Notes under the pieces: generated by a model
Told to the model about the DNA's origin: nothing
The model's database searches: none
Seen by the model: the letters and a program-made list of their open reading frames with translations, nothing else
Shown here: one piece after another, positions 13,428 to 44,391 of the stretch
Layout: the number at the start of each line of letters is the position of its first letter
Numbering within the stretch: the stretch's first letter is position 1
Program-made: the position numbers and the translations under genes
Assembly: GCA_021324885.1 (NCBI GenBank)
Contig: JAJPIF010000025.1
Location: 46,713-110,712 of the forward strand
Direction: 5' to 3'
DNA from: Pseudomonadota bacterium
GTDB lineage: Bacteria; Desulfobacterota; Binatia; Binatales; Binataceae
DNA: 64,000 bases

Positions 13428-13556
13428 GCTCTGAGGGCGCAATCAGTGCTGTCGAACCGAGCGGATCCGGTCGAGAGCGGACTTTAAGCGCGCAGCAGCG
13501 CCGTCCTTGAACGATTGGAATGAGCCAATCCTGTTGCGACTCGACTAAAAAGTCCT

Positions 13557-26416: not shown

Positions 26417-26576
26417 GGTTCGGCTCCTTGGGTTTGAAGTGTGACTGGCAGCCATTGCCCCAGACAGCAGGAATGGAGCTGTAGACTTCTCTCTGTATAT
26501 AAAATCTCCGAAAAGAAGACAACGGTTACAAGTTTGGGTTGGCCGCTGGTCACGCCGCTACTCCGTCAGAGGGACT

Positions 26577-27515: not shown

Positions 27516-27516
27516 T

Positions 27517-28476: not shown

Positions 28477-28500
28477 CTCGACCTCCCGCCCGGCGCGGCC

Positions 28501-29874
28501 CTAACGCGCGCCAAACAATTTCGAATCCAGATGCAGTCCGGCGGCTTCAAGCCGCCGGGAGTAAACCGAGCGGATCCCCGTGGGCCGGAAGGTGCCGAGC
28601 ACTTTGCCGTCTGGCCCGACTCCAGTGCGCACGAACTCGAACAAGTCCTGCATCGAGATCGCCTCGCCCTCGACGCCGGTGACCTCTGAAATCTTGATCA
28701 GCTTGCGGCTGCCGTCGGAAAGCCGTGCGACCTGCAAAAAGATGTTGATTGCTGAACTGATCTGGGTTCGCATAGCGCGGTCGGGCAGCGCGAAACCGGA
28801 GAACATCATCATCATTTCAAGGCGGTTGAGGCTGTCGCGCGGACTGTTGGCGTGGATAGTGGAAATCGAGCCGTCATGGCCGGTGGACATGGCCTGAAGC
28901 ATGTCGATTACTTCGGCGCCGCGCACCTCGCCGACAACGATGCGGTCGGGACGCATGCGCAGAGAGTTCCGCACCAGGTCGCGCTGGGTTACCTCGCCTT
29001 TGCCTTCCAGATTGGGTGGACGGGTCTCCAGCCGGACCACGTGCGGTTGCTGGAGCGAAAGTTCGGCCGAGTCCTCGATCGTAATGATGCGTTCGTTGTG
29101 CGGTATAAAGGAGGTCAGGCAGTTCAACATCGTGGTTTTGCCCGATCCGGTACCGCCGCAGACCAGCAGATTGAGCCTGGCTTTGACGATCACATTGAGA
29201 AATTCGGCCATCTGCGTGGTCAGAGTGCCATTCTTGATCAGAGTATCGATGGTGAGCGGCTCGCGTCCGAAGCGGCGGATCGACAGAACCGGACCGTCCA
29301 GAGCCAGCGGTGGAATAATCGCGTTGACGCGCGAGCCGTCGGCCAGGCGCGCATCGACCATCGGCGAGGATTCGTCGACGCGGCGGCCAACGCTGGCAAC
29401 GATGCGTCCGATTACGTTGAGCAGATGTTCGTCATCCTGAAAAACGACATCGGTCTTGTACAGTTTGCCGCCGCGCTCGATATAAACCTCGCTGGAGCCG
29501 TTAACCAGGATATCGCTGATGGTATCGTCGCGGAGCAGCGGCTCCAGCGGCCCGAGGCCAAGGATTTCATTTTTGACCTCTTCGATCAGCCGCAGGCGAT
29601 CCGTATCGGTGACCAGCCGATCCTGCTCCTCCAGATGCTCGTTTATAGCCGCCGTCAGTTTGGTCTGGACCTGGGCCTGATCCAGCGACTCGATTTTGCT
29701 CACGTCCAGCGTGTGAAGCAGATAATCGAGCATCTCGCTTTTCAGTTCGCGAAACGCCGCCGCGTCACCGGTCTCCTTTGTAGTATCCCGGCGCTGGGAA
29801 ACCACCGCCAACGAGGAAACCGCCGTTGAGCCGCTGCCGTTCGCGTTTTTCGAGAGACGTTCACTCAGCGGCAT
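28501..29874 (-). CDS. cpaF: CpaF/TadA family pilus assembly ATPase
   Basis: 457 aa; Walker [15 protein letters not shown], secretion-ATPase His box region. Confidence 0.85.
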
Positions 29875-29877
29875 CGC

Positions 29878-31107
29878 TTATCTCCTGGAGTTCTTCCCAT
29901 TACGTGAGAATGAAAAAAACTTGTTGAACAGGCTGGCCTTGGGCTTCTTCTGAGCCAGACCGCAAAGCTCATTCGCCAACGCTTCATATCCGCGGACCAG
30001 CGCCGAACGAGGCGCGACCTTCCACAGATCTTCACCGCGGGTCACAACCAGCCGAATAGAATCATCGTCGCGGGGCAAGCGTGCGGCCAAGGGACGCCCC
30101 AGCGTATTGGTAATATGCTTGTCGCTGATTGGATGGTGCGCAATCCAGCGGTTGAGGACGATTCTGGGAGCGATATTGGAGAGATTGAGCCGGCCAAACA
30201 GGTCCAGGAAACGCCACGCCCCGCGAATCGCGCCGATCGACTGGTCGATCACGTACACTATCTCGTCCGAGTTCTCCCATGCCGCGACCGAACTGTCGTT
30301 GATGTGGCGACCGACATCCACAATCACCACGTCCACCATCTCGAGCAGCATGGACAGAATATCGGTGACCCGCGAAGAAGGAACTTGCTCGCTTTCCTCG
30401 ATCCGGCGCGGTGCGGCGAGCAGATATATCCCCGAGGGATGTCTGGTCAGGGCGGATTCGACCTGCACCGAGTTAAGGCGGATTTTTGCCTCCGCCAGAT
30501 TAATAATCGAGTGCTCGGGTTCGAGGTTGAGGGCAGCGTCAAGGTCGCCGGACTGGAAGTCCAGGTCAACCAACGCAACCTTTTTTTCGGTCGAATGAGC
30601 TAGCGCCAGTGCGCAGTTGGCAGCGATCGTGGTCACGCCGGCGCCGCCCGTCACGCTGACCATCGAAATCAGTCTGCCCCTGGTACCCGGTTGGGGAGCG
30701 GCACTGACTTCGCTGATTTTCAGCAGAGCGCGGGCCAGTTCTCCCTGGTCGACAGGCAGGAACAGAACCTCATCCGCACCGGCACGCAGCGCGGCGCGCA
30801 CGGCTTGCGGCGCCCGCTCCTTCATCAGCGCAATGCGGACCGGTGTCTTGCCTGATTCGGCGCCCGGCGCCGGAATACGCGCGGGATGACGCTCGCTGGT
30901 GAAGACGAACATCACGACATCGGTGGGCTCGCGCATCTGTTCGGGACGCGCGGCGATATCGGCGTCGTGGATATCCAGCGGCTCCTCGGTGGCTTCCAGA
31001 GCCGCGCGGATTTGCGCGCCATTATCGGGATCGGCAAACAGGAGGACGCGCAGTTTGCGCGGTCCGCCTGCCGGCTCATGAAGCAGGATGTCAGCGTCTT
31101 GCGCCAC
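29878..31107 (-). CDS. cpaE: CpaE/TadZ-like pilus localisation protein (pseudo-receiver + deviant ParA/MinD-like ATPase domain)
   Basis: 409 aa. N-terminal receiver-like domain, then a ParA-fold domain whose Walker A reads SVTGGAGVTT (about 30631-30657) instead of KGGxGK[ST], so both lysines are replaced. Confidence 0.7.
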   Translation of the reverse strand: MAQDADILLHEPAGGPRKLRVLLFADPDNGAQIRAALEATEEPLDIHDADIAARPEQMREPTDVVMFVFTSERHPARIPAPGAESGKTPVRIALMKERAPQAVRAALRAGADEVLFLPVDQGELARALLKISEVSAAPQPGTRGRLISMVSVTGGAGVTTIAANCALALAHSTEKKVALVDLDFQSGDLDAALNLEPEHSIINLAEAKIRLNSVQVESALTRHPSGIYLLAAPRRIEESEQVPSSRVTDILSMLLEMVDVVIVDVGRHINDSSVAAWENSDEIVYVIDQSIGAIRGAWRFLDLFGRLNLSNIAPRIVLNRWIAHHPISDKHITNTLGRPLAARLPRDDDSIRLVVTRGEDLWKVAPRSALVRGYEALANELCGLAQKKPKASLFNKFFSFSRNGKNSRR

Positions 31108-31109
31108 TG

Positions 31110-33050
31110 CTAGAATCTCGGCCGCGCCGCGTCCGGCGTGGTCAGCGAGCGGGTCCGGACTTCTTCCGGCGTCAGCGGTCCCTGGCGTTCGGTGGGCAGC
31201 GCCACTTCGGCACCCGGCGGCAGCGGCCGGACGATTTCCGGGGTCACGCTCATTACCAGTTCATCCTTGTCATGCTGCCAGTAGGTTTGTTTGAACAGGC
31301 TGCCCAAATAGGGAATATCGCCCAGATAGGGAACCTTCTGAACCTGGGCTTTGCTGGTATCGAGAATCAAGCCGGCAATGATCAAGGTCTGGTTATCACG
31401 AAGGCGGACGCGAGTTTCAGCCCGGCGGGTCAGAAATGCCGGCACCGTAAAGCCAAATAGCGAAACACCCTGTGAATAGTCCGGCTGCGAGACTTCCGGC
31501 CGCACCGCCAGGTCGATGTCGCCACCACCGATTACGGTCGGCACGAAGATCACCGAAGTACCATACTGCTTGAATACGATCGTGGTGGTCAGGGCCTGGG
31601 TGATTACGATCGGAATTTCGCCGCCGTCCAGAAACTTCGCCTTTTGACCGGAATTGGCCAGCAGTTGCGGCCGGGCCAGAATTCTGGCGAGGTTGTGCTG
31701 CTCGAGAAACTGGAAAAAGGCATAGGTCGACACATTGGAGTTCTGACCGGCTACCGCGTAAGTAATATTTTGTGAATTCAGCAGCGGCATGGTCGTACCG
31801 CCCGGAACCATGCTGATCGGACCTTCGGCGCCGGCGGCCGTGAAGGGGGTGGCAACATAACCGGGGAAGCTCAGAGCAGTAAAGCCGTACTTGGTCAGGG
31901 CCGCCGAAATGTTGACGCCCATCTGCTCCAGTTTGCTGAGGTCAACCTCGGCCACAATCGCATGCAGCATGACCTCCTGATGGCCCGCGATTTCGGTCCA
32001 AATCTGCCGCTCCAGATAGTTGCCCTGGCTGTCCCAGACCACCAGCGTGCTGAAGCCGGGCTTGTGCCCAACCAGCATCACCTGATGATTTCCGAGCACT
32101 TGGACGTCCGCCACTCCGCTATTGGAGATCGAAATCCGGCTGATAGGCCCGCCGAAATCATAGACCTGGGAGGTTCCGGAGGTGATCGTAATGGTGCCCG
32201 GGGGCAGGTTGTGCCGGCCGCCAAAGGCCACGTGATTGACGTAGCTCTCCGAGCCTGCCAACGCACGCGGATTCGTCGTGAACTGCTGGTTGAGCACAGC
32301 GGGCGGCTGTTCATGCCATTGGCTGCCGGTACTGGCGGCGACGTTGGCCGAAAGCGTCTGCGCCGAGCTATCGGACGACGTCACACCGCTGGCGTAGTCC
32401 TCTCCATTCGCTCCGCTGAATGCGGTTGGTCCCACCACTTCGGTCTTGGTGGTGATGCTATCCCCATTTGCGTTCGCAGCGGCCCCTGAGGACGCAGCCG
32501 CCACCGGTCCGGTTCCTGAGTCGGGGGCGCTGGCGACCACGCCTGCACCGGGTCCCATGGTACCGGCCGGCGCAACGGCAGTTTCAGCCTTCGCTATAGG
32601 CGCAGGGTTCGCCACCGCAGCGGTGGCGGGAGCGTACGGAGCGGGAGCGGCAGTTTCGGGATGACCCGCGCCACTCAAGACCGGCGGCGGTGAGGAGCCC
32701 GGATTGAGCGGGCTGCTGGCATTGACAACACCGCCGACGATGACGTGATAAGTTACGTCTTCGCCCCCCACTTTGGTCTGGATTGAACCTTCGCCAGGCT
32801 GAAAACTGAATATGGTCAGCGAATGGGAGCCGGTGTTTTTGACCGTGAAGGCGTTGGGGTTGCTGATGAAGTTGACCACCGGTGCGGCGGTGGTATCGAC
32901 GTTTTTGATTTGATAAGCCTCGCCAGCCTTAAGCGTCACCGTTACCAGTTGCTGGGCATAAACCTGGCCGGGAGCGAGGGCGGCGCCGGTTATTAGGAGA
33001 GCCGCGACCAAGGCTGCGTGAAAATTAAACTGACTCTTAGTAGGCTTCAT
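31110..33050 (-). CDS. cpaC: CpaC/RcpA secretin (type II/III secretion system secretin family)
   Basis: 646 aa with signal peptide. C-terminal secretin domain pattern. Shares its last base with the cpaB stop/start junction (TAATG). Confidence 0.8.
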   Translation of the reverse strand: MKPTKSQFNFHAALVAALLITGAALAPGQVYAQQLVTVTLKAGEAYQIKNVDTTAAPVVNFISNPNAFTVKNTGSHSLTIFSFQPGEGSIQTKVGGEDVTYHVIVGGVVNASSPLNPGSSPPPVLSGAGHPETAAPAPYAPATAAVANPAPIAKAETAVAPAGTMGPGAGVVASAPDSGTGPVAAASSGAAANANGDSITTKTEVVGPTAFSGANGEDYASGVTSSDSSAQTLSANVAASTGSQWHEQPPAVLNQQFTTNPRALAGSESYVNHVAFGGRHNLPPGTITITSGTSQVYDFGGPISRISISNSGVADVQVLGNHQVMLVGHKPGFSTLVVWDSQGNYLERQIWTEIAGHQEVMLHAIVAEVDLSKLEQMGVNISAALTKYGFTALSFPGYVATPFTAAGAEGPISMVPGGTTMPLLNSQNITYAVAGQNSNVSTYAFFQFLEQHNLARILARPQLLANSGQKAKFLDGGEIPIVITQALTTTIVFKQYGTSVIFVPTVIGGGDIDLAVRPEVSQPDYSQGVSLFGFTVPAFLTRRAETRVRLRDNQTLIIAGLILDTSKAQVQKVPYLGDIPYLGSLFKQTYWQHDKDELVMSVTPEIVRPLPPGAEVALPTERQGPLTPEEVRTRSLTTPDAARPRF

Positions 33051-34093
33051 TAGTTGGTGTCACTCCCCATGCTCATCCCGGCACCCCCGCCGGACATCCC
33101 GTCGTTGGAACCGCCTGCGGCGGCGCCGTCATCCGACGCACCGTTGTCATCGCCGCCCAAGCTGGGTGTGCCGACGCCGGATCCATCGGAAGGGCCCGGA
33201 CCCGCGGCGGCAGAAACCCTCAAGGCGCGGCCGTCGCCGCCCAAGGGAATCAATTCACGGCTACTGCCGTTGCGCAGCACTTCGATGGGCGGCGGCCGCC
33301 ACCGGCGAATGATCCTTCTAACTCGTACATGCACCACGGGAGGCGGCGCCTGAGTCACGGGCACCGGCGGTGGGGCGTCACCCATTACCTTGCGGACATT
33401 GCTTCCCGATGTCGGCACATATGCATTGTCGCCATAGCCACGCAGCGCAAGCTGCAGTTTGCCCTGGGTGCTGGCCACCGCAAGGCGCTCAGCCTGGTCC
33501 GGGCTGACCAGCAGGGTTACGACGCGTTCGGGCTGGGGCTGATCCTTGCGCTGAACGGTCTGAGCGGCAGCCAAAACGGGGATATCCTGAAGCACGATCT
33601 TGGAACGACCGGCGTCTTTGTCATTGCCGGTCAGCGAGAGCAGAACATCGACCTTGGTAAACGGCAGGACGAAGCCTGACATGTCGGAGACGTCGTCCAC
33701 CGCCACCGACATCGCGCGCATGTCAGGGGGGATCATCAGGGGCAGCACCCCGGAAGTCTGGTCGGCGGCAGCCAGATGCGACGTCACGAGCGGCTCGTCC
33801 TCGACGAATTCGGCTTTGGCCACGCTGCCGATCACGGAGTTCGAGTCAGTAATTGCTCCCGGCGGCAAAGCATTGCGCGGCCAGCGCGCCAGCTTGACGT
33901 AAGAAGAATCGATTTTGCTGCCAATTGGGATGTCGCGCGCCGCAACGACGATCGGAACCGTCGTGGCCAGGGCCCTTTGCACTTCCAGGTCCTTTTTCTT
34001 CAAGGACGAATAAACGACCATAGAGGCCAGCGCCGCAGCAATCCCCGCAAGCACCAGAAAAATTAAAGGTCTACTCACTTGACCCGCCTCCAA
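33050..34093 (-). CDS. cpaB: Flp pilus assembly protein CpaB/RcpC (SAF domain)
   Basis: 347 aa; N-terminal TM helix, SAF-like region (VVAARDIPIGSKI), Gly/Ser-rich tail. Possible GTG start slightly downstream of 34093. Confidence 0.75.
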   Translation of the reverse strand: MEAGQVSRPLIFLVLAGIAAALASMVVYSSLKKKDLEVQRALATTVPIVVAARDIPIGSKIDSSYVKLARWPRNALPPGAITDSNSVIGSVAKAEFVEDEPLVTSHLAAADQTSGVLPLMIPPDMRAMSVAVDDVSDMSGFVLPFTKVDVLLSLTGNDKDAGRSKIVLQDIPVLAAAQTVQRKDQPQPERVVTLLVSPDQAERLAVASTQGKLQLALRGYGDNAYVPTSGSNVRKVMGDAPPPVPVTQAPPPVVHVRVRRIIRRWRPPPIEVLRNGSSRELIPLGGDGRALRVSAAAGPGPSDGSGVGTPSLGGDDNGASDDGAAAGGSNDGMSGGGAGMSMGSDTN

Positions 34094-34151
34094 CAGCTTT
34101 GTGTAACTGCGCTCCCATCACAGGCCCGACACATTAAAATCTTGTTTTAAA

Positions 34152-34700
34152 TTATTCAACCATCACCGACGTCGAATTGCTGATCGGTGTTGTTTTAAAC
34201 GTCGAGATAAACGGCAAAGAATACCCCAGGAAATCCGTTGGCAGGAAAAGCTTGTTTCCCTTGTATAAATTGTAACTTATCGTGACGGTGAGCTGGTCGC
34301 CCGAGTTGATGGTGCTATCGCTGCTTCCTGTGCTGGTTGTACAGGCGATGTTGGAAATACTTAGCCCGGAACCGCCGGAGCAGCCGTCAAAGCCTGAAGT
34401 GCAAATGGTTGGCGGGGTCGGCACGTTGGCTTCGATGGTTGAATTGTAGGATGTATCGCAGTTTGAGCCGGTACCATGGACTGCGGCATAGCGCGCAGCT
34501 ACATAAGAATATTCACTGACAGCTAATGCTGCGTTAAAAATCAGGGCAAGCTGCAATCCGCCGAACAGGATAAGCAGGACCACGGCGATGGCGATAGCGG
34601 TTTCAACCATCGCCTGCCCCAGCTCAGCTCGACGCCCACGGCGGACCGTATGGCCTGATTTTCTCGGCAAGAAGCTAGCGTATAAGCATGGTTGACTCAT
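34152..34700 (-). CDS. tadE: TadE-family pseudopilin-like protein
   Basis: ORF 34152..34772. TadE N-terminal pattern RRGRRAELGQAMVETAIAIAVVLLILF after internal Met (34700). No clear Shine-Dalgarno for either start, so the start is uncertain. Ser/Thr-rich extracellular part. Confidence 0.6.
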   Translation of the reverse strand: MSQPCLYASFLPRKSGHTVRRGRRAELGQAMVETAIAIAVVLLILFGGLQLALIFNAALAVSEYSYVAARYAAVHGTGSNCDTSYNSTIEANVPTPPTICTSGFDGCSGGSGLSISNIACTTSTGSSDSTINSGDQLTVTISYNLYKGNKLFLPTDFLGYSLPFISTFKTTPISNSTSVMVE

Positions 34701-34827
34701 TGTGATCAGGAGACGCCAATTATTTTCGTTTCGCGGGCCGGCCGGCCACCATTTCCTGCTTAAGCCGTGCATCGATAGGCATGCACGGCTTTCTCAACGC
34801 TCCTTTTATACATCACAAACCGCGAAA

Positions 34828-34855
34828 GCAAAAGAGCGCAGGACCCCCCTTTTGC
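34828..34855 (-). terminator. putative intrinsic terminator/attenuator hairpin between flp1 and tadE
   Basis: Inverted repeat GCAAAAG ... CTTTTGC (7-bp stem, GC-rich 14-nt loop). On the transcribed strand it is followed by UUUCGCGGUUU. It lies in the flp1-tadE gap, where pilin/machinery attenuation is common. Confidence 0.3.
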
Positions 34856-34926
34856 CGATTCCTGCGTGCCGAAGTCATCAAAAATCGAGACCCGGCTGGT
34901 CAACCGCCTTCTGGGTACGAGGGCGC

Positions 34927-35109
34927 CTAAACTGAAGCGGCGACCCCCGTCATCGCGGTGCTGACGTTCGAACCCAGGGCCTTGACAGCGGCGTACGCCG
35001 CGATCGCGATCAGGGCGAGCAGGATAATGTACTCGGTATATCCCTGCCCTTCCTTCGGTTCCCGCATGCGCACCCACGTACCCACGATCCGGTCCTTCAA
35101 ACGTTCCAT
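34927..35109 (-). CDS. flp: Flp family type IVb prepilin
   Basis: 60 aa (alternative Met at 35067). G-X4-EY prepilin processing motif (G QGYT EY) followed by hydrophobic helix IILLALIAIAAYAAV. Confidence 0.75.
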   Translation of the reverse strand: MERLKDRIVGTWVRMREPKEGQGYTEYIILLALIAIAAYAAVKALGSNVSTAMTGVAASV

Positions 35110-35227
35110 CCTTCAGTCCTCCTTGGTTGTTTGTTCTCATCTCGGTGGAGAAGTCCGGTCCTCACACCGTTAAGAGCCTGATTGCGATAAAGCCAGCGTT
35201 GGGCCGTAAAGCTCCCTCTTGCGTCCG

Positions 35228-35470
35228 TTAAACGGACGGGGCGACCTGGTCATACAAACCCGTCGTAAGCTGACTGCCGAAAAACTTCACAGCGCTGTAA
35301 GCCACCAGTGCGATAAGACCGAGGAGGATCACGTACTCGGTATAGCTCTGCGCCTGTTCGCTATTGCTATACAACACGTACAACCGTGTCGCGCGGCTAT
35401 TGATGTTTAGCATGGCCTGCCTCGATTTGGATAGAAGAAGCTCTGACCGCACCTCCGTGGCATTTTTCAT
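35228..35470 (-). CDS. flp: Flp family type IVb prepilin (second copy, Ala at -1)
   Basis: 80 aa (alternative Met at 35413). SEQA QSYT EY VILLGLIALVAY has the Flp X4-EY core, but Ala replaces the usual Gly before it. Confidence 0.65.
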   Translation of the reverse strand: MKNATEVRSELLLSKSRQAMLNINSRATRLYVLYSNSEQAQSYTEYVILLGLIALVAYSAVKFFGSQLTTGLYDQVAPSV

Positions 35471-35709
35471 CTATCATTTTTTTTTCTGCTTTACAATACT
35501 TTACGATCATCTACAGGATGGGCTTTGTAACACATGATAGGATTTGCTGTCAAGTAGTAGAAAAAAAATTTTTCTGTGGAAAAAGATCACCGGACAGCAT
35601 GAATTTGTCGCAAAAGCCACATATTTTGAGTCCATGCTGATGGCTCGATCTTTTAACACCTGTTGCACCACGCGGCGAAAAAACGCGATTTAGCTTTTTT
35701 TGGGCCGGA
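35471..35709. promoter_or_regulatory. AT-rich divergent promoter region between flp2 and the ArnT-like glycosyltransferase genes
   Basis: About 240 bp non-coding, markedly AT-rich, with T9 and A8 homopolymer runs. Sits between divergently oriented operons. Confidence 0.45.
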
Positions 35710-37179
35710 TTGATGAATGGCTTACCGATAAATCGAATGGGGAGGGACCCCGGAATCGGGACCTGGGGTCCAGCCGCTGCGTTGATCCTGGGGGCGGGAA
35801 TCCTTTACAGCCTCCACCTGCGCCGTCCGCTGGACTCCAGCGAGGCGTACACTGCGCTTGCCGCTGCACAACGCAGCTGCACCGCCGTGGTCCGGATCGC
35901 GATGCGTTTTGATCCGGGCAAGCCGCCGGTTTACCAGATCGCGCTGCACTACATCGAGCGGCTGTTGGGAGGAAGCGAGCTGACGCTGCGCGCGCCGTCG
36001 GTAATCGCGTCGATGGCCAACATCGCCCTGCTGGTGGGATTGGGCCAGACAATGTTCGAGCCGGCGGTAGGTCTGGCCGCGGCGCTGATCTGGGCAGTCA
36101 ATCCGCTGGCCATCATCTTTGCGGCGTGGGCGCGAGATTACGCGCTGCTGATCACGTTTTCCCTAGCGCAACTGTTGACGTTCTGGAAGCTGCGCGGCGC
36201 GCGATCTTCCGCGGCAGCTGTCGTAGTGTGCGGCCTGTTGGGCGCCGCGATGCTTTACACCCATCTGTGCACGGCTCTGGTCCTCGCCGCGGAAGCAGCC
36301 TTGCTGGTTGGCGCCGCATGGCGGGGCGCGCGGACTTTGGAGTCATGGACTGCGATAGGCCTGGCATTGGGTTTGTTTGCTCCGATGATTCCATCGCTCA
36401 TCACACAGATGCACACCGTCGTTTCGGGGCATTTGTACGATTGGATCGGCTCAGCGCATCAGACTTCTATTTGGGACAAAGCCCTGGCCTGCGCCATCGC
36501 AGCCGCAGCCGTGGGCGTGCTCATTTTCGCACCTCGCTTTGAGCAAGATGAGCGCGAGCCGATGCGGTGGTGCATTGGAATTGCCCTGATACCGGCTGCG
36601 GCGCTGATCGCCGGATCGGTGGTGGTGCGGCCGATGTTCGCAATCCGTTATGTGTCACCCTCAGTGGCGATTCTGATCTTGTTGGGGGCGCGTCTTTTGG
36701 CATCCTTCAGGACCAGGGTATTTCACCTGAGCACGGTCGGGATAGCCGCTTTCCTGGCCTTTCTGTACCCCTGCTATGGATGGTACGAGCCGTGGCCTGA
36801 CATCGCGCGCGCGGTGGCCAGCGGTTCGCCCGCGGAGCCGGTGTTCTTCGAACCAATCTTTACCGACCCCAAAGATCCACTGGCCGATCGCGGGCAGGGT
36901 TTCCCTCAAGGCTTCTTTCGTCCTGCATTTGATCATTATTTTGCCGGGCCCAACCCGCGCCGAGTAGTGGATCCTTCGAGGCCCGAACAGGCGCGGCGGA
37001 CGATAGCCGCGGCCGCGAAAGCGGCGCACGGGGCCTGGCTGGTCTCGATGTTCAGCGAGGACAAGGCGCGCGTGGAATTGCCCCAAAACTGTTTCAGGAT
37101 CGAAAAGAAGGTAGGTTCCTATGATACAGTCCTGCTTCATGTGGTCCCGCTTGGCGCGGACCGGTGCAAGTCTCGGTAA
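35710..37179 (+). CDS. ArnT/PMT_2-like GT-C glycosyltransferase (GT83/GT39-like); paralog C1
   Basis: 489 aa polytopic. First periplasmic loop LDSSEAYTA (DE-x-Y-type acidic motif), FDPGKPPVYQ (KPP motif), GGSELTLRAPSVIAS. The order of these motifs mirrors the ArnT N-terminal region. Confidence 0.6.
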   Translation: MMNGLPINRMGRDPGIGTWGPAAALILGAGILYSLHLRRPLDSSEAYTALAAAQRSCTAVVRIAMRFDPGKPPVYQIALHYIERLLGGSELTLRAPSVIASMANIALLVGLGQTMFEPAVGLAAALIWAVNPLAIIFAAWARDYALLITFSLAQLLTFWKLRGARSSAAAVVVCGLLGAAMLYTHLCTALVLAAEAALLVGAAWRGARTLESWTAIGLALGLFAPMIPSLITQMHTVVSGHLYDWIGSAHQTSIWDKALACAIAAAAVGVLIFAPRFEQDEREPMRWCIGIALIPAAALIAGSVVVRPMFAIRYVSPSVAILILLGARLLASFRTRVFHLSTVGIAAFLAFLYPCYGWYEPWPDIARAVASGSPAEPVFFEPIFTDPKDPLADRGQGFPQGFFRPAFDHYFAGPNPRRVVDPSRPEQARRTIAAAAKAAHGAWLVSMFSEDKARVELPQNCFRIEKKVGSYDTVLLHVVPLGADRCKSR

Positions 37180-37212
37180 GCGCTGCTGTCCGAATCTGCG
37201 CAATGCACCCGG

Positions 37213-38796
37213 GTGGAAATTTCAGATCGGAGCGACGCCCGCTTGAGCAAGGCTGCGCCCGCCAGCGATAGGGGATCGGCGGCTTGCGCCAGTTCACGGC
37301 CGGGGCATGCCAGTGGGCTCAATTGGAAGCTCGGTGCCGCCTCCCTGATGGTGTTGGCAGGCACCCTCTATGCCGTACATATAGGCCGCGGCCTGGGCGC
37401 AAGCGAAGCTTACACCGCGATGGTAGCAACCCAAACCAGTTACAGCGCAGTCAGCGTGGCTGCGTTGCGCTTCGATCCTGGAAAGCCCCCGCTTTATCCA
37501 CTCCTGCTGCACGGCCTCACCACAATCTTTGGCGACAGCGAGATTGTGCTGCGTGCGCCTTCCGTCATCTGCTCGACCATTGCTATCGGCCTGGTGTGGG
37601 CGCTCGGAAGCGAGATGTTCGGGCCCGCTGTCGGCTTCGCTGCTGCGGCATTTTGGGCGCTGAGCCCCCTGACGGTCATCTACGCCGGAGTTGCGCGAAT
37701 GTACGCGATGCTGATGGCCCTGGCGCTGGCCCAGCTTTTGACCATGTGGCAATTGGCCTTCAAACCGACCGCAGGCCGCATGGTGTTGTGCGCAGCGCTG
37801 GGGGCCGCGATGCTTTACACACACCTGGGCAGCCTTTTGTTTCTGGGCGCGGAAGGCGCGATATTGGCGGGGCAGAGCTTGCGCGGGGAGCGTAATCGCG
37901 CGAGATGGACGGCGTTAATTGTTTCGCTGGCGCTGTTTGCTCCTTTTTTGCCCATCGCCGCCAGTCAGGTCCGCGAACTCGTATTCGGCCATTGGGTGGA
38001 TTGGATCGGGCCTGCGCATCCGGTCAGCCTTGTGCGCAAGACCTGCGTCATTGTTGGGGCGGGCGCCATCGCGGCCGCATTGAGCTTCGGACCACGCTTG
38101 GAAGCCGACGAGCATGAACCGATTAGATGGTGCGCGACGCTGGCGATTTTGCCGATAGTCGCTTTGATCGCCGGCTCGCTTGCCGTACGCCCCATGTTTT
38201 CCGCCCGTTATGTGGCGCCCTCGCTGTCGGTGTTGGCGTTGCTGTTAGCCCGCCTGCTGGCGTTTCTGCGAGGCAGGGCATTTGGGCTGTCCGCGTTCGG
38301 TGTCGCATGCTTTCTGTTTTTTTTGCTGCCGTCCTATCCGCGCTCCGATACCTGGCGCGATTTCGCGCGGCAGGTGTCCAAAGGCTCGCCCAGGGAACCG
38401 GTGTTCTTCGAGTCAGGCTATGTGGACAGTACGGCGTCCGAGACCAATCCGGAGATGGGTTTTCCGCAGGGATTCTTCCGGGTTCCGTTCGATCGCTATT
38501 TCTCCGGACCCAATCCGCGCCTGGTGATCGACCCCTCAGCCCCGCAGGCCGACGGGCGAGTAATCGCCAACGCCGCCATCGCCAATGGAGGCGCCTGGCT
38601 GGTCAGCGGCCTGAAGGACGCCAAGGCGCGCGCGGAAATGCCGACGGGCTGTTTCAAGATTGAAAAGAAGACACATTCCGATTACGCGGATCTGTACCAT
38701 ATCGCACCGATCGCGCACTGCTCTCAAAGTGATTCGCTCGGGCCTCGCCGCGGTCAGCCGACGACAGCACCCGCGGGTGCTGCGCCAGTATCGTAA
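37213..38796 (+). CDS. ArnT/PMT_2-like GT-C glycosyltransferase; paralog C2
   Basis: 527 aa. Block-wise paralog of C1 (LGASEAYTAMVA, FDPGKPPLYPLL, GDSEIVLRAPSVICS), C-terminal domain conserved. Confidence 0.6.
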   Translation: MEISDRSDARLSKAAPASDRGSAACASSRPGHASGLNWKLGAASLMVLAGTLYAVHIGRGLGASEAYTAMVATQTSYSAVSVAALRFDPGKPPLYPLLLHGLTTIFGDSEIVLRAPSVICSTIAIGLVWALGSEMFGPAVGFAAAAFWALSPLTVIYAGVARMYAMLMALALAQLLTMWQLAFKPTAGRMVLCAALGAAMLYTHLGSLLFLGAEGAILAGQSLRGERNRARWTALIVSLALFAPFLPIAASQVRELVFGHWVDWIGPAHPVSLVRKTCVIVGAGAIAAALSFGPRLEADEHEPIRWCATLAILPIVALIAGSLAVRPMFSARYVAPSLSVLALLLARLLAFLRGRAFGLSAFGVACFLFFLLPSYPRSDTWRDFARQVSKGSPREPVFFESGYVDSTASETNPEMGFPQGFFRVPFDRYFSGPNPRLVIDPSAPQADGRVIANAAIANGGAWLVSGLKDAKARAEMPTGCFKIEKKTHSDYADLYHIAPIAHCSQSDSLGPRRGQPTTAPAGAAPVS

Positions 38797-40229
38797 TGCC
38801 TGCCAAACCATATGACGCGGTCTGGCGGATCGTCCGCCTCCGGGTGGCGGAACTTACGCTGGGAGACCGACAGTTTCCGGTAATTATCTGGAGCGTGAGT
38901 TTGGCGGTGTTTCTTCTGTCTCCCGTGGTCCAGTTCGGCGACTCCGCGTTCAGCCTCCTGCTCAGCGAAAGTCTGCTCCACCGCCATGGTTTTGATCTCA
39001 GTGCTTACCTTCCCGACGGTGCCAAAGCTGCGATTGTAAACCGCGTCGATTTCATGCACGTGAAGCCGCTCTACCAGCTTTTGCGCGTCAGGCACGCGAT
39101 CGTGTATGCCTATCCGTTTGGTGGGTCGATCCTGGCGATTCCGTTTGTGGCGGTGCTTAACCTGTGCGGCCTGTCGGTTTCCAGTAATCAGCATTTCAAT
39201 ATTTACGCCGAAGTAACGATGCAGAGGTTTATCGCGGCGTTTTTGATGGCCACGCTGGCCTGGATCTTTTTTCGGGCCGCCCGGCTGCTGCTGTCGCGAA
39301 ACTGGAGCGCCGTTATTGCGCTTGGCGCCGCCTTTGGAACTCCCGTCTGGAGTTCTCTTTCGCGCGGGCTGTGGAGCCAGACCTGGGCGGTCTTTTTGAC
39401 CGGTTACCTGATGTATCGCCTGCTTGCAGACGATGCGAAACTGCGTCCGGCCAACGGAGCAACCCTGGCGACACTGGCGTCATGGATTTTCTTTTGCAGG
39501 CCCACCGGAGCGATCGTGGTCGTCGCAGTGACCGCCTACCTGATTGCCTCCAGGAGGCACCTTTTGCGGCAGTGGTTCATTGCCGGACTGTTCTGGTTGT
39601 TGTGTTTCATCGGCCTGTCACGAGAAATCTATGGAACTCTCGTTCCTCCTTACTACCTGTACGGCGGTCTCATACATACCGATCATGTGTTTGAGGGAAT
39701 GGCGGGCGTTCTCTTTAGTCCATCCCGGGGCCTCTTTATTTTCGTTCCGGTGACGCTGTGGATCTTTTACCTGGTACTTCGGAATTTCAACTTGCTGCCT
39801 CACCAGGGGTTAGCCTGGCTGGCGCTGGGGATATGCCTCGTTGAGGTGCCGCTTGCGGCATGCGATGCAAAATGGTGGGGCGGTCACTCTTACGGGCCCC
39901 GTCTGCTGGCCGACCTCATACCCTGGCTGGTTCTGCTGGCGATCCTGGCCTTCGCTGCGGAAATCCGCCGCACTCAGGCACCGAGCGCCGGCAAGAGAAA
40001 TGCTCTTCTGCGTTATGGTCCGGAAACAATCGGCGCCGCGGCACTCGCGCTCAGCATTCTAATGAACGCTCCCGGCGCCCTCTCACCAACCGGCGACCTG
40101 TGGAACAAGCGGGGCGGCGACGTGGATACCCATCCCCAGCGGCTGTGGGATTGGAAGAAACCCCAATTTTTGGCCTGGATCTCCAGTGAACCTCACGACC
40201 CAAATACTCCGAGTTCGATTGATCATTGA
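38796..40229 (+). CDS. polytopic membrane protein (possible glycosyltransferase-like), family unassigned
   Basis: 477 aa, more than 10 hydrophobic helices. Start overlaps the stop of C2. No family motif recognised by eye. Confidence 0.45.
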   Translation: MPAKPYDAVWRIVRLRVAELTLGDRQFPVIIWSVSLAVFLLSPVVQFGDSAFSLLLSESLLHRHGFDLSAYLPDGAKAAIVNRVDFMHVKPLYQLLRVRHAIVYAYPFGGSILAIPFVAVLNLCGLSVSSNQHFNIYAEVTMQRFIAAFLMATLAWIFFRAARLLLSRNWSAVIALGAAFGTPVWSSLSRGLWSQTWAVFLTGYLMYRLLADDAKLRPANGATLATLASWIFFCRPTGAIVVVAVTAYLIASRRHLLRQWFIAGLFWLLCFIGLSREIYGTLVPPYYLYGGLIHTDHVFEGMAGVLFSPSRGLFIFVPVTLWIFYLVLRNFNLLPHQGLAWLALGICLVEVPLAACDAKWWGGHSYGPRLLADLIPWLVLLAILAFAAEIRRTQAPSAGKRNALLRYGPETIGAAALALSILMNAPGALSPTGDLWNKRGGDVDTHPQRLWDWKKPQFLAWISSEPHDPNTPSSIDH

Positions 40230-40394
40230 AGGCCGCGCACTGGCGATTGGCCGAAACGCGCGAAGGCGGACCGTGACAAGACCCCGAACCTGGTCGCCCT
40301 CAGCGACTTTGAAAATGACGCATTCGAGGCGCACGTTGATGCCTCTACCGAAGGACACCTGGACCAGCCGTCTGCCAAGTAAAAGAGCACTGCT

Positions 40395-41411
40395 CTATCT
40401 TTTACTATGAGAGCCTGTTCCACATAGTGCCGGAGCCTGGTTGTGCTCGAAAGTGAACTGTCCGCTTGAGAATCGGGCGATAACATAAATCGAGGCCACC
40501 GCGATGGCGATTCCAGCCAGGATGTCCACGAAATAATGATGGCCTTCTGGAATCGAAAGCACCATTAAGCCATTGAGTATCAGAACAGGGAAAAACAGAC
40601 GGTTAGCGGGTCGATGGACATATATGAGGATTACGGCGAGGGCGGCATGATACGAAGGCATCGTGATGATGCCCTGCACGTTGTCTAAGGAGAAGCGCTT
40701 GATGCCCTCGCGGAGTCCAATGAGAACAGGGTAATAATCAGTATGCGTGGGATAGGGGCCAAGCGCAGGCACGCATGCGAACAGAGCTGTGGTGACCAGC
40801 GCAGAAAGAATAGCGGTCGCCAGGAGTTCGGTGTTGCGCTGCGGACGGTCGGTCATGGCAAAATAGAGCGTTGAGCCGATAACCTGGGGAAGCAGGCTCG
40901 CATACGCTATCCATAGAGCGATGTGGAATACCGGGTGGGCGAACACAAAGGTATGATATGAGAGCCAGTCGAAGCCCAGGCGCGCGTCCATGCGGCTTAA
41001 CTGAAGGTCACGCAAAGGCATGGAGAGGCTGGCCGCGAGGTAGGTGAGAATAACGCCGGCCAGCGAGAATATTACCCAGAGCGCGGTAAAGTGACAGGCA
41101 TCGGCCAACCTGCGGTTAGGACGCTTTACCGTGTAGAATACGAATCCGGCGACCAGAAACGTCAACCCCTCAAAGACGCTCGACCATCCGGTAAACTGCA
41201 ATTGTGCGTGGAAATTCCACAACGAATCGACAAGAACAATGATCAGGATCGAAGTCCACAGCCACGAAAACCTGTTTGCTTGAGCGGCGAGGGCAGGGAG
41301 TCCTTTATCTCGCCTGGTTGGCACCAGCGGAACGCTCGCAACGGTACCTGCCAACGGCATGACATCCTGGGATGGTTGATCGAGTTCATTTAATTGTTTC
41401 GCCTGATTCAT
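40395..41411 (-). CDS. PAP2-superfamily membrane protein, sphingomyelin/inositol-phosphorylceramide synthase-like (PAP2_C type)
   Basis: 338 aa polytopic. KRPNRR, PSYHAALAV and EGHHYFVDILAGIAIAVASIYV match the KxxxxxxRP / PSGH / HYxxDVxxG motif triplet of lipid phosphate phosphatase / SMS / IPC-synthase enzymes. Confidence 0.55.
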   Translation of the reverse strand: MNQAKQLNELDQPSQDVMPLAGTVASVPLVPTRRDKGLPALAAQANRFSWLWTSILIIVLVDSLWNFHAQLQFTGWSSVFEGLTFLVAGFVFYTVKRPNRRLADACHFTALWVIFSLAGVILTYLAASLSMPLRDLQLSRMDARLGFDWLSYHTFVFAHPVFHIALWIAYASLLPQVIGSTLYFAMTDRPQRNTELLATAILSALVTTALFACVPALGPYPTHTDYYPVLIGLREGIKRFSLDNVQGIITMPSYHAALAVILIYVHRPANRLFFPVLILNGLMVLSIPEGHHYFVDILAGIAIAVASIYVIARFSSGQFTFEHNQAPALCGTGSHSKR

Positions 41412-41438
41412 CGCGTTGTCTTCGTGATTATTCAGATG

Positions 41439-42641
41439 TCATGCTGTGTACGAAGTTAAAGTGACCGCATCCGCTGGTTGGTATTGCGGTTGCGCCCCCG
41501 GCCGGGTTGCATGAACGCGCAAGGCTGGTTGTAGACTATGGCGGAGGCACAAAATCATGCCCGCCGCCATTAGTACTGTGGTTAGCGGCAGGCCGCGCGT
41601 CGCAAAAGAGCGCATAACAGCCGGGGAGAGCCACAGGGCCGCGAGTACTAAGACTTCGCCGGGCAAAAAGCGCGAATGCAGGCCGTCCACCGCGAGCCAG
41701 GCGATTGGCAAGGCGAGCAGGACCACGTCGTACTCCAGCAAATGCGGGGTGAGCAGCATGGTGGCCAGTACCAGGGCGGTGGCCTGCAACTCGATGACGC
41801 CGGAGCGTTTCCACACCAGCATCGCCGCGCCTGCGGCCAGGGCGGCAACTGAGAAGTGAATGATATAGGAAGCCTCGACGCTAAATCCCCAGATTCGCGC
41901 GGCGGCGAACAGGGTCTGAAATTTCTCCCATCCCGGGGCTCCGTGTTCGAGCACGATCGTGCGCGTATAGTGCGTGCTGTGCAAAAAAGCCGCCCAGGTC
42001 TGCCATCCGAAAGCGGCCCACGCGAGCAGGCAAAACAGGACCGCCGAAGCCGCCGACGCCGCCAGCGCGCGCCATCGTTTGGTTATACACAAGAACAGCG
42101 GGATGAGTACGGCTAGTTGGGGTTTGTACGTGCACAGTCCGAAAAGCGCGCCGGCCGCAGTCGGCCAGGTGTCAAGACAGAGAATGCCGGCGCCAATCAG
42201 AACCAGGGTCAGCAGGCCATTTTGGGCGAAGATGAAGTTGAGGAACACGCCCGGAAAGGCAAGGGCGAGCAGCAGACCACGTTTCTCAATCCGGCTCATC
42301 ACCAGGAGGTACGCAATTATCCATAGGATGGACCAGACTGCCTGGGACCACAGATACGGCAATAGCGCCAAGGGAGCGATGATCAGAAGATAGGTGGGGG
42401 GATACGGAAAGGGGGTAAATCCAATGTTATAACCAGCTATTTTTTTCTGTGCGGCCCACAAGCGGAGGTTGTCGTATGCGGACGCCGGCGACCCGTGCAG
42501 GACCATCGCGGAAGCGGACCACCATTCGATGAAATCGGAGCGGGACCTGGTGCTTTGCCGGTAAACTTCGGGGAGAAACCAGAGGTACGCAATCAAAAAG
42601 GCGATGGGCAAAACATAGAGTAGCGCTTTCTTACTTGGCAC
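41439..42641 (-). CDS. DUF2029/GT87-like polytopic membrane glycosyltransferase (second copy)
   Basis: 400 aa. N-terminal SDFIEWWSASAMVLHGSPASAYD resembles the DF..YY.A...L..G..PY loop motif of GT87. About 12 hydrophobic helices. Confidence 0.45.
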   Translation of the reverse strand: MPSKKALLYVLPIAFLIAYLWFLPEVYRQSTRSRSDFIEWWSASAMVLHGSPASAYDNLRLWAAQKKIAGYNIGFTPFPYPPTYLLIIAPLALLPYLWSQAVWSILWIIAYLLVMSRIEKRGLLLALAFPGVFLNFIFAQNGLLTLVLIGAGILCLDTWPTAAGALFGLCTYKPQLAVLIPLFLCITKRWRALAASAASAVLFCLLAWAAFGWQTWAAFLHSTHYTRTIVLEHGAPGWEKFQTLFAAARIWGFSVEASYIIHFSVAALAAGAAMLVWKRSGVIELQATALVLATMLLTPHLLEYDVVLLALPIAWLAVDGLHSRFLPGEVLVLAALWLSPAVMRSFATRGLPLTTVLMAAGMILCLRHSLQPALRVHATRPGAQPQYQPADAVTLTSYTA

Positions 42642-43959
42642 GACACCAAATTGCCATCAATAAGCACCGATTGCAACGGACTGGCCAAAGCAAGCATGCT
42701 TGCGGATGAAACTTTGCTCCAACCCGTCGAATCCGGGCCAGCGAGCCGCCGCTATTAAATAAGGAGACTCCCGGCCGCCATCGCGCAGCAGCTTTGGAAG
42801 CTGCCGTTGGATGAAGCGGTTGAACTCGATCGGACTGATCAGCCACAGGCCGCGATTCCCGGGCGAGTCTTTCGAGGCTCTCGCGGCGATATCGGCGGTG
42901 GTTGGCGATGGATGTGGTTCGCGGTTCCGTATTCCAGGGACCGTTGGGCGCCACGAGCTTTGGCGCGGATGGGCCGCAAAGAGAACGGCTAAGCCATCAT
43001 TAGCTTTCCTAATTCGGACCGCATCGGGATGGTTCATGGAAAAGGTCGCAAAAGCGCCTGGCGCCCGGACTCTCGCGGTCCTTTTGTTGATTCTCATTTT
43101 CTGCTAATTTTAACTTGAAAGCTTTTGAAACATGCAGTATTTACATCATGCTTGCAGTTAGTGCGAGGAGACCTACTCTAAGTAGGCATTGCCGGACGAC
43201 ATTTTGTACATAAGCTGTTCTTCTTGGTGGGCGGCGTCGAGCGGCGGGAGCGAGAAGGTTCGGACGGTAAACCGACGCGGCTTCACCATGATCCGGCCGG
43301 TATGGATGTCGAGTAAAAGCTGGCGCTGACTGCGGGCCCGGGGGAACAATGAAATTATGCTGACGGACGCGAAAACGAGGGCTAAGTTGAAGCTGTATCT
43401 GGCCGGGCTGCTGACCGGGGTCGCACTGGCGCTGTGGAGCGGTGGTCATGTCAGCGAGAGCGCCTTTTTCCACAGCCAGGACGTGCAAATGTTCTGGCGG
43501 CTGTACGCCTCGGCGAGTCTTGGCAGATTCGCCTGAGCGCTCCGCACCGAAGTCACATCACCGGGGTCCGACGGTTTATGCGTCCGGCTAAGGCGCCGCA
43601 GCGCTTTGGCGTCTGACCGCCGGCGCAGCCGTGCGCGGGCTTCGGATTGGCCGACTATCGCGCGCGCAATGAGTTATGACGGCTTTGCCGGTGCAGGCGG
43701 CCGCTATCCGCGGATGCTCTAAGCGGATGCTCTAAAACGTTGTGGTTTCATTTCCGGGGAGCAATCATCGGCGCGCCCGCGTCGTTGCCTCGCTCACGCT
43801 GAAGGCCCCACCGCATCTCAAACCGCAATCGCGTATCGGTGTCAAAGCTCCCCGCAAACGGCGCAAAATCTCAGTGCGCGGGCAACGTCCCGCTACTCTT
43901 GACTGCAACGAGGGAAAAAAAGCAAAATGTAGCGAAAATTTTATCAATAAGGAGCGGCG

Positions 43960-44391
43960 ATGAAGAACATTTTGAGCTTGGCGTGTCTTCTTTTGGTGCT
44001 GGCGTGTTTATGCGCATCGGCAGACGCGAGTCCCAAAGACAGGAAGATTACGGTCGCCTGCAGCGCCCTGGCTCCGGATATCATTACCGGCTCGGCCATC
44101 GTAACAGCGTGCGCCGACTCGACGTGCGCCACGCAGACCGTTTCCTGTCCGCAAATATACTGTGACAGCAGCGCAATCACCGCCCCTTCGACAACAACCG
44201 AATCCTGCCCCACGCAATTCAAAGTGACCGCTATCATGTACAACCTCAGTTATGTGGATACCGATGTTAACGGCAACACGATTATCTCCTCGGGCGAGGT
44301 TGGCGCCACCAGCACGTTGCAAAAGGGATCGGTAGGATTCGCGAATTCGATCGGTTACGGCAACGATACGGTCACTTTGACGGTCAAGTAA
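43960..44391 (+). CDS. small secreted Cys-rich, Thr/Ser-rich protein (hypothetical)
   Basis: 143 aa. Signal peptide MKNILSLACLLLVLACLCASADA, then at least 9 Cys in the mature part. Preceded by about 1.3 kb without convincing genes. Confidence 0.45.
   Translation: MKNILSLACLLLVLACLCASADASPKDRKITVACSALAPDIITGSAIVTACADSTCATQTVSCPQIYCDSSAITAPSTTTESCPTQFKVTAIMYNLSYVDTDVNGNTIISSGEVGATSTLQKGSVGFANSIGYGNDTVTLTVK

Follow-up and report, generated by a model that had tools for sequence, protein, structure and literature searches.

A Tad pilus operon bracketed by GT-C glycosyltransferase and PAP2_3 genes in Binataceae: candidate enzymes for the modification of a pilus component

Which substrate could a set of polytopic membrane enzymes serve when their genes lie against those of a Tad pilus? 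The question is raised by a 64-kb stretch of Binataceae DNA (hereafter the window, meaning the whole stretch analysed), in which two flp pilin genes heading a complete Tad operon lie next to a block of five genes for integral-membrane enzymes (positions 35710-42641). Judged by gene order, PMT_2 and PAP2_3, two unrelated families of this block, are linked, each on its own, with the Tad operons of other organisms, and no other result of the analysis is as strong. We give about an even chance to the reading that the block and its flanking enzymes constitute a Tad-associated periplasmic glycosylation module that modifies a component of the pilus. Tad/Flp pili are widespread organelles of adhesion and biofilm formation, and their post-translational modification is barely understood. 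The five genes of the block are the following.

C1: 35710-37179, forward strand; PMT_2-type GT-C glycosyltransferase, first of two tandem paralogs (Pfam PMT_2)
C2: 37213-38796, forward strand; PMT_2-type GT-C glycosyltransferase, second paralog (Pfam PMT_2)
C3: 38796-40229, forward strand; GT-C-fold glycosyltransferase of a family without a Pfam model (AlphaFold2 and Foldseek)
PAP2_3: 40395-41411, reverse strand; Aur1-like integral-membrane lipid phosphotransferase or phosphatase (Pfam PAP2_3)
GT87b: 41439-42641, reverse strand; GT87/DUF2029-type GT-C glycosyltransferase (Pfam GT87)

An earlier sequence-only reading of the window had delimited the same five long open reading frames (ORFs) at the same coordinates. 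To judge from their hundreds of homologs, they are conserved genes, and chance ORFs are ruled out. The NCBI start of C1 lies 3 nt later (488 aa), an alternative start of C2 at 37243 yields 517 aa, and the PAP2_3 gene probably starts at 41360 (321 aa). Because the gap between C1 and C2 is only 33 nt and the stop of C2 overlaps the start of C3, the arrangement of C1-C2-C3 looks like one operon; a spacer of 27 nt separates GT87b from the PAP2_3 gene, which follows it in the same orientation. A scan of 34800-44000 for promoters and terminators gave counts at background level.

Relatives of C1 and C2 were collected by searching species-representative genomes with their alignment, which gave 78 loci with 10-kb flanks, and a neighbour-joining tree of these 78 PMT_2 homologs resolves into two clades. 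The large sister clade occupies a conserved 'housekeeping' neighbourhood composed of a RecD2-like helicase gene (recD2), MATE, gcvP, gcvT and folD, and no glycan genes were found near the PMT_2 genes of this neighbourhood. C1 and C2 belong to the other, distinct clade, together with 12 proteins from other genomes. Genes of the flp/tad type neighbour 10 of the 11 assessable members of the C1/C2 clade versus 1 of 64 in the sister clade (Fisher's exact test, p = 1.4e-10, a test that ignores relatedness among genomes). At eight of the ten Tad-adjacent loci the PMT_2 gene is divergent from flp, as in the window (L002, L003, L004, L045, L052, L061, L065 and L074); at L008 it lies on the same strand behind tadE, and at L071 it abuts tadG. 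The other two of the 12 clade members comprise one on a 2-kb contig, which is not assessable, and one without a Tad neighbour (L078). The linkage persists down to about 40% PMT_2 protein identity and occurs at both Tad loci in three genomes having two such loci. The complete arrangement, two flp genes divergent from C1-C2-C3, is kept in the metagenomic relatives L090 and L091 at about 70% identity. Most Tad-linked loci, by comparison, carry a single PMT_2 gene as their only glyco-gene.

The PAP2_3 family leads to the same organelle by an independent route. Its loci were recovered through a word-index search, which showed the family to be small (49 hits), and a metagenome scan (80 additional loci), and Tad genes are present in seven of the metagenome loci: the PAP2_3 gene directly follows tadC in L137 and L153, and lies near rcpA/rcpC in L097, L131, L133, L146 and L161. 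Where it stands behind tadC, as in L137 and L153, no homolog of the GT-C or B proteins of the window was detected nearby. Elsewhere, PAP2_3 adjoins C1/C2-type genes (L082, L085) or genes of the B3/B4 type (L084), the latter being two of four paired polytopic genes found beyond the far end of the Tad operon in the window. The pairing of GT87 with PAP2_3 is likewise seen in L082, L087/L088 and L115. At least 3 kb of sequence is available downstream of PAP2_3 in 18 loci, and in 8 of them the next gene is B3/B4-like, often with an overlap between the two; Tad genes or a B3/B4-like gene are present at 10 of the 22 PAP2_3 loci flanked by at least 5 kb. The association with the Tad pilus, which the sequence-only reading had offered as a possibility, is strongly backed by this conserved gene order.

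Homolog-bearing genomes are labelled Binataceae, 'Candidatus Binatus', 'uncultured delta proteobacterium' or Acidiferrales. The PMT_2 family is present in dozens of Binatia-like and Acidiferrales metagenome-assembled genomes (MAGs), often in several copies per genome, and C3 has hundreds of acidobacterial homologs. The remark that such machinery is unusual for a secretin-bearing diderm does not stand, given how common these families are among Binatia-like and acidobacterial MAGs.

GT-C enzymes act at the outer face of the cytoplasmic membrane and draw on polyprenyl-phosphate-linked sugars as donors. Both C1 (34.2 bits, E 3.6e-8) and C2 (51.9 bits, E 1.3e-13) score above the cut-off of 26.1 bits of PMT_2 (PF13231), with matches that cover profile positions 2-158 of 160. 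The two proteins are 50% identical to each other, and C2 has 238 homologs. The motifs S-E-A-Y, D-P-G-K-P-P and G-x-S-E-x-x-L-R-A-P-S are found in both and hardly vary in an alignment of 30 family members, so that the description of C1 and C2 as tandem ArnT/PMT_2-like paralogs stands. Narrower assignments found no such backing. Neither protein matches PF02366, MIR or PMT_4TMC at E ≤ 1, as a Pmt of family GT39 would, and their acidic loop reads S-E-A-Y as against the D-E of GT39 Pmt. Similarly, neither has an NCBIfam ArnT match, the window holds no arn genes, and a profile of the C1/C2 family compared with PDB sequences returned nothing meaningful, solved ArnT included.

The third gene, C3, had been described simply as another polytopic protein, which it is, and its predicted structure adds the GT-C fold. 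C3 has no Pfam match. By its score against NCBIfam NF047440, the LA_3751/LA_3752 putative glycosyltransferase model (46.2 bits, E 2.8e-12, cut-off 200), it is related to that family but falls outside the curated cut-off. An AlphaFold2 model built on 40 homologs reached a mean predicted local distance difference test (pLDDT) value of 86.7 and a predicted template modelling (pTM) score of 0.90. In a Foldseek search of the PDB with this model, ranks 1-38 were all GT-C enzymes or a GT-C-like subunit of the glycosylphosphatidylinositol (GPI) transamidase, most with a probability of 0.9-1.0 and TM values of 0.31-0.54; ALG9, STT3, ArnT, AftA, Pmt4, PglB, PimE and Emb were the top matches (probability 1.0), and DPY19 also stood among the 38. 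Because the model is confident and these ranks are filled by GT-C structures, C3 is, on its predicted fold, a fourth GT-C enzyme of the block. Its Asp49, located after the first transmembrane (TM) segment, is invariant in the homolog alignment. Profile comparisons with hhalign of C3 with C1/C2, of B3/B4 with C1/C2 and of B3/B4 with C3 were uninformative (probability below 8%).

The PAP2 protein scores 112.5 bits against PAP2_3 (PF14378, cut-off 27), the Pfam family to which fungal Aur1 belongs. The sequence-only reading had placed it in PAP2_C (PF14360, the sphingomyelin synthase type), an assignment that the Pfam scan does not return. In an alignment of 44 homologs, P252-S-x-H255 and G290-x-H292-Y-x-x-D296 are invariant and Arg234 is nearly so, and the motif KxxxxxxRP, typical of hydrolytic PAP2 phosphatases, was not found. 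A confident AlphaFold2 model (pLDDT 88.8) has yeast Aur1, the fungal catalytic subunit of inositol phosphorylceramide (IPC) synthase, as its best solved structural match, with 241 residues aligned at 14% identity as against 153 residues for LpxE; one further Foldseek search with the model gave nothing useful. Aur1 shares with PAP2_3 the PSxH and HYxxD motifs and the lack of KxxxxxxRP. PAP2_3 differs in lacking an identified Kei1-like partner and nearby genes of the ceramide or phosphatidylinositol (PI) pathways, and in the link of its bacterial family to Tad operons and to B3/B4. Against the PI-dihydroceramide synthase model NF052609 it scores 21.8 bits (cut-off 480), through the catalytic motifs only, and among the ORFs scanned in the window there is no PI synthase, inositol-phosphate synthase, serine palmitoyltransferase or ceramide synthase. 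The label 'IPC-synthase-like' is thus fair for the modelled fold and the family and silent on substrate; the tie to inositol and ceramide that it carried finds no support.

GT87b matches GT87 (PF09594, cut-off 25) over the full-length profile (positions 1-237, 126.3 bits, E 2.1e-36). It had been described as a second GT87 enzyme, correctly, as a first one is encoded directly downstream of tadG.

GT87a: 23936-25270, reverse strand; first GT87, directly downstream of tadG (Pfam GT87, E 4.6e-21)

The two GT87 proteins share only 27% identity over 187 aa. Membership in the PimE family is borne out for neither: GT87a reaches 15.4 bits against PRK13375 (cut-off 413), and GT87b shows no NCBIfam match and no match to the PDB sequence of PimE. 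PDB sequence searches with the PAP2 protein and GT87b returned nothing meaningful.

From three kinds of observation, namely enzyme class, fold and a Tad linkage kept across genomes, we infer a donor, an acceptor, an order of action and a chemistry for PAP2_3. C1-C3, GT87b, PAP2_3, GT87a and B1-B4 surround the Tad operon and most likely belong to it functionally. All five enzymes of the block are of lipid-linked-donor types according to their family and fold assignments, as the sequence-only reading had held. A cytoplasmic GT2 enzyme, presumably encoded elsewhere in the genome and adjacent in relatives, would load a sugar onto polyprenyl phosphate, and the lipid-linked sugar would then be flipped to the periplasmic face. 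The earlier statement that GT-A, GT-B and nucleotide-sugar genes are absent holds for every ORF scanned in the window, though relatives do carry an adjacent GT2: L090 has a GT2 glycosyltransferase beside the module, with a C-terminal TM domain according to precomputed annotation, and in L082 a GT2-methyltransferase fusion lies next to GT87b, another PMT_2, PAP2_3, C2 and C1. It is plausible that these GT2 genes make the polyprenyl-phosphate-sugar donor whose maker is absent from the window. Synthesis of a short glycan on a Tad component would then begin with C1/C2 at the periplasmic face of the inner membrane and continue with C3 and the GT87 enzymes. For PAP2_3 there are two candidate activities: transfer of a phospho-headgroup from a membrane phospholipid to that protein or its glycan, comparable to the action of Aur1 on ceramide, or dephosphorylation of a lipid carrier.

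Three acceptors may be considered: the Ser/Thr-bearing C-terminal part of Flp, the TadE pseudopilin with its Ser/Thr-rich stretch, and the linker of the secretin RcpA. Both Flp pilins of the window bear Ser/Thr in their C-terminal parts. In RcpA, residues ~110-260 form a low-complexity linker of 100-150 residues rich in Ala, Pro, Ser, Thr and Gly, located before the pilus-N and secretin domains, and its composition makes it a possible O-glycosylation acceptor. A protein acceptor is more likely than a lipoglycan because relatives have Tad loci with a single GT-C enzyme. The Flp pilins of the closest Tad loci (34927-35109 in the window, and those of L002, L004, L090 and L091) also frequently have the tripeptide N-[IV]-[ST], as in GSNVST or GTNIST, within the C-terminal portion that is exposed; it is probably a generic Flp feature, and some GT-C enzymes are N-oligosaccharyltransferases. 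A correspondence between the duplicated enzymes (C1/C2, B1/B2, B3/B4) and the pair of flp genes was considered and rejected, relatives with a single PMT_2 also having two flp genes.

Pilin-associated glycosylation by membrane enzymes is a known theme. TfpW of Pseudomonas aeruginosa Pa5196 is reportedly a GT-C enzyme whose gene lies beside pilA. This membrane glycosyltransferase adds D-arabinofuranose oligomers to a type IVa pilin: its sugar is made in the cytoplasm, attached to a lipid carrier, and after translocation is transferred directly to Ser/Thr residues of the pilin (bioRxiv 10.1101/2020.04.19.049825). By analogy, the enzymes compared here are also polytopic and would act in the periplasm, and C1 is the immediate divergent neighbour of flp. 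The differences are that TfpW serves a type IVa pilus and the window encodes a Tad/Flp system, and that TfpW is a single Emb-like enzyme with known D-arabinofuranose donor genes, whereas the window has several GT-C enzymes of other families (PMT_2, GT87 and an unnamed one) and has no donor genes. The individual enzymes add new members to known superfamilies, and the ensemble varies the theme in a pilus class for which our literature searches found no such enzymes described; searches on a Flp pilin glycosyltransferase or on a PAP2_3/GT87 connection found nothing relevant. To our knowledge, no enzyme has been assigned to the glycosylation of Aggregatibacter Flp1, and we know of no PAP2 enzyme that modifies a pilin. 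Neisseria PptA, which belongs to the alkaline-phosphatase/EptA superfamily and not to PAP2, modifies type IV pilin with a phospho-headgroup. Together with Aggregatibacter Flp1, reported to be glycosylated and to bear phosphorylcholine (PMC6182317), it provides a precedent for such decoration. By functional analogy only, decoration of this kind is a reaction that an Aur1-like transferase could catalyse.

A different destination for the sugars was proposed by the sequence-only reading, which compared the block with actinobacterial machinery for phosphatidylinositol mannosides, lipomannan and lipoarabinomannan (PIM, LM and LAM). PAP2_3 would then make an inositol-phospholipid anchor and the GT-C enzymes would extend it, for example into an adhesion glycolipid alongside the Tad pilus. 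Multi-enzyme GT-C sets for mannan and arabinan are indeed resembled by C1, C2, C3, the two GT87 enzymes and perhaps B1-B4, an IPC synthase is the best structural match of PAP2_3, and the best NCBIfam match of C1/C2, a weak one, is the MT1671 mannosyltransferase model. Actinobacterial Pmt (GT39) and the GT87 enzymes PimE and MptA belong to the same superfamily and Pfam families (PMT_2-like, GT87) as the enzymes of the window, use polyprenyl-phosphate-sugar donors and act outside the cytoplasmic membrane. The window differs from these systems in the failure of the PF02366, MIR and PimE models, in its secretin-bearing diderm host, in the absence of any PI, inositol or ceramide pathway gene among the ORFs scanned, and in the presence of a pilus operon instead of cell-wall loci. 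The lone PMT_2 gene of most Tad-linked loci is hard to reconcile with a lipoglycan pathway; the position of PAP2_3 behind tadC where no GT-C or B homolog was detected nearby also speaks against it, and the score of PAP2_3 against the PI-dihydroceramide synthase model stays far below its cut-off. We judge this explanation unlikely, and the attractive idea of a diderm making mycobacterial-type lipoglycans is corrected here as unsupported.

Envelope remodelling independent of the pilus would have C1/C2 act on lipid A or the lipopolysaccharide (LPS) core in the manner of ArnT or RgtA-D, with the PAP2 protein resembling LpxE or LpxF and the adjacency to tad reflecting co-regulation or hitch-hiking. 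Many ArnT-like enzymes match PMT_2, JGI names many of the PMT_2 relatives 'ArnT-like', and the system that modifies Rhizobium LPS with galacturonic acid combines tandem ArnT-like paralogs with a PAP2 phosphatase. ArnT also has the GT-C fold, and its N-terminal order of acidic loop, KPP and conserved Arg is similar in C1/C2. These proteins are nevertheless set apart from it by the lack of an arn operon and of detectable sequence similarity to solved ArnT, and by their Tad-linked clade. No ept or lpx genes were found in the window scan, and both the missing KxxxxxxRP motif and the shorter alignment with LpxE than with Aur1 count against a phosphatase of the LpxE type. The Tad adjacency specific to one clade would go unexplained, because the sister clade, which is not Tad-linked, would be the more natural envelope enzyme; we consider this account improbable. 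A general periplasmic protein O-glycosylation system, like that of actinobacterial Pmt with an extension, would treat Tad proteins as a few among many targets with Ala/Pro/Ser/Thr-rich linkers. Linkers of this type, of which the RcpA linker is one, are typical targets of general O-glycosylation, and relatives of C1/C2 bear the automatic NCBI name 'glycosyltransferase family 39 protein'. The same lack of PF02366 and MIR matches and the S-E acidic loop speak against such a Pmt; the 'housekeeping' paralog would be a better candidate for a general system, and the C1/C2 clade is specifically Tad-adjacent. We see only a small chance for this explanation.

Several points weigh against a Tad-associated glycosylation module. 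GT87b and PAP2_3 lie on the strand opposite to C1-C3 and converge on them. No homologs of PAP2 or GT87b were found in the 77 species-representative genome loci recovered with C1/C2, and because of this absence the notion of the five genes as one universally conserved unit was rejected. About half of the adequately flanked PAP2_3 relatives have neither Tad nor B3/B4 neighbours. The notion of C3 as Tad-specific was likewise rejected, since distant homologs lie in a polysaccharide gene cluster of the ordinary kind (L173) or in unrelated surroundings (L172). PMT_2 also includes lipid-directed enzymes such as ArnT. A linker similar to that of RcpA is found in 8 of 9 PMT_2-linked homologs, a comparison restricted to linked loci with no control set. 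The data come entirely from uncultured MAGs. The acceptor of the module is inferred. At least nine polytopic enzymes are many for a mature pilin of about 37 residues, a number that polymer or lipoglycan assembly fits better. Finally, no density for a modification is seen in the Tad pilus of Caulobacter (PMC10710030).

A bolder version of the module would combine PAP2_3, B3/B4 and the Tad-linked GT-C clade in a new Tad modification pathway, in which a PAP2 transferase moves a phospho-headgroup to pilin, secretin linker or glycan. We rate it a long shot. If it were true, PAP2_3 would provide the first known example of protein or glycoprotein modification by a member of the PAP2 family, and a function would be gained for a family of some 18,000 clusters (B3/B4) without a Pfam model. 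The Tad-linked GT-C clade and the Aur1-like PAP2_3 are concrete candidate enzymes, and the hypothesis is testable by heterologous co-expression.

The pilus genes themselves, read away from C1, and the four B genes beyond GT87a, which form two tandem pairs of paralogs, are arranged as follows.

Two Flp pilin genes: 34927-35109 (60 aa) and 35228-35413 (61 aa), region 34927-35470, reverse strand; divergent from C1
Tad pilus operon: 25319-34772, reverse strand; complete, headed by the two flp genes
tadE: 34152-34772, reverse strand (Pfam TadE)
rcpC/cpaB: 33050-34093, reverse strand (Pfam RcpC and SAF)
rcpA, secretin: 31110-33050, reverse strand (Pfam Secretin and T2SS-T3SS_pil_N)
tadZ: 29878-31107, reverse strand (Pfam AAA_31/CbiA)
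tadA, ATPase: 28501-29874, reverse strand (Pfam T2SSE)
tadB: 27517-28476, reverse strand (Pfam T2SSF)
tadC: 26577-27515, reverse strand (Pfam T2SSF)
tadG: 25319-26455, reverse strand (Pfam Tad)
B1: 21811-23922, reverse strand; polytopic, paired with B2 (53% identical)
B2: 19557-21704, reverse strand; polytopic, paired with B1
B3: 17980-19602, reverse strand; polytopic, paired with B4 (45% identical)
B4: 16332-17945, reverse strand; polytopic, paired with B3

Counted together, the genes of ten membrane enzymes, some of them candidates, enclose the Tad operon. The Flp pilins, of 60 and 61 aa in both NCBI and Logan gene calls, display the motif G-x-YTEY(I/V)ILL followed by a hydrophobic helix. 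B1-B4 probably belong to the same system as the other Tad-flanking enzymes, and family scans with them returned no match in Pfam (to E = 10) or NCBIfam (to E = 1). B1 and B2 are proteins of about 700 aa, polytopic in the N-terminal half and soluble in the C-terminal one, and BLAST found no homolog of them in any locus fetched. B3 and B4, of about 540 aa, have an invariant A-D-P-D-L-W-x-H motif after the first TM segment. At E ≤ 1e-3 their family comprises 18,381 cluster representatives; Pfam has no model for it, and no sequence relative stands in the PDB. A scan of 32 homologs against known families gave no match. B3/B4-like genes adjoin C2-like genes in L003 and L074 as well as PAP2_3 genes in many loci, and they are the commonest operon partner of the PAP2_3 family. 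These genomic partners hint at where the function of this very large family should be sought.

The block also exists in a slightly different copy. Contig JBAIIF010000223.1 of the MAG GCA_037025025.1 (L080) is nearly identical to the window, with 10 mismatches within a 13.3-kb aligned block that ends at a 24-nt insertion/deletion inside the PAP2_3 gene (~40584-40617); in this copy, the NCBI call for the PAP2 gene is 313 aa long with no Pfam hit recorded. A Logan contig (L081) is identical to the window, including at that site. The difference looks like strain heterogeneity or an assembly variant.

Beside the end of B4, a convergent group (12807-16234, forward strand) abuts it and encodes a VWA-domain protein, a PP2C phosphatase and a Ser/Thr kinase with a C-terminal BON domain. 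Five of the PMT_2-linked Tad loci (L045, L052, L061, L065 and L074) form a second type. In four of these, L061 being the one where it was not found, a gene for a CheY-like response regulator lies just upstream of PMT_2. All five have an L,D-transpeptidase gene downstream, and MlaE/MlaF-like components of an ATP-binding cassette (ABC) system are present in L045, L052 and L061.

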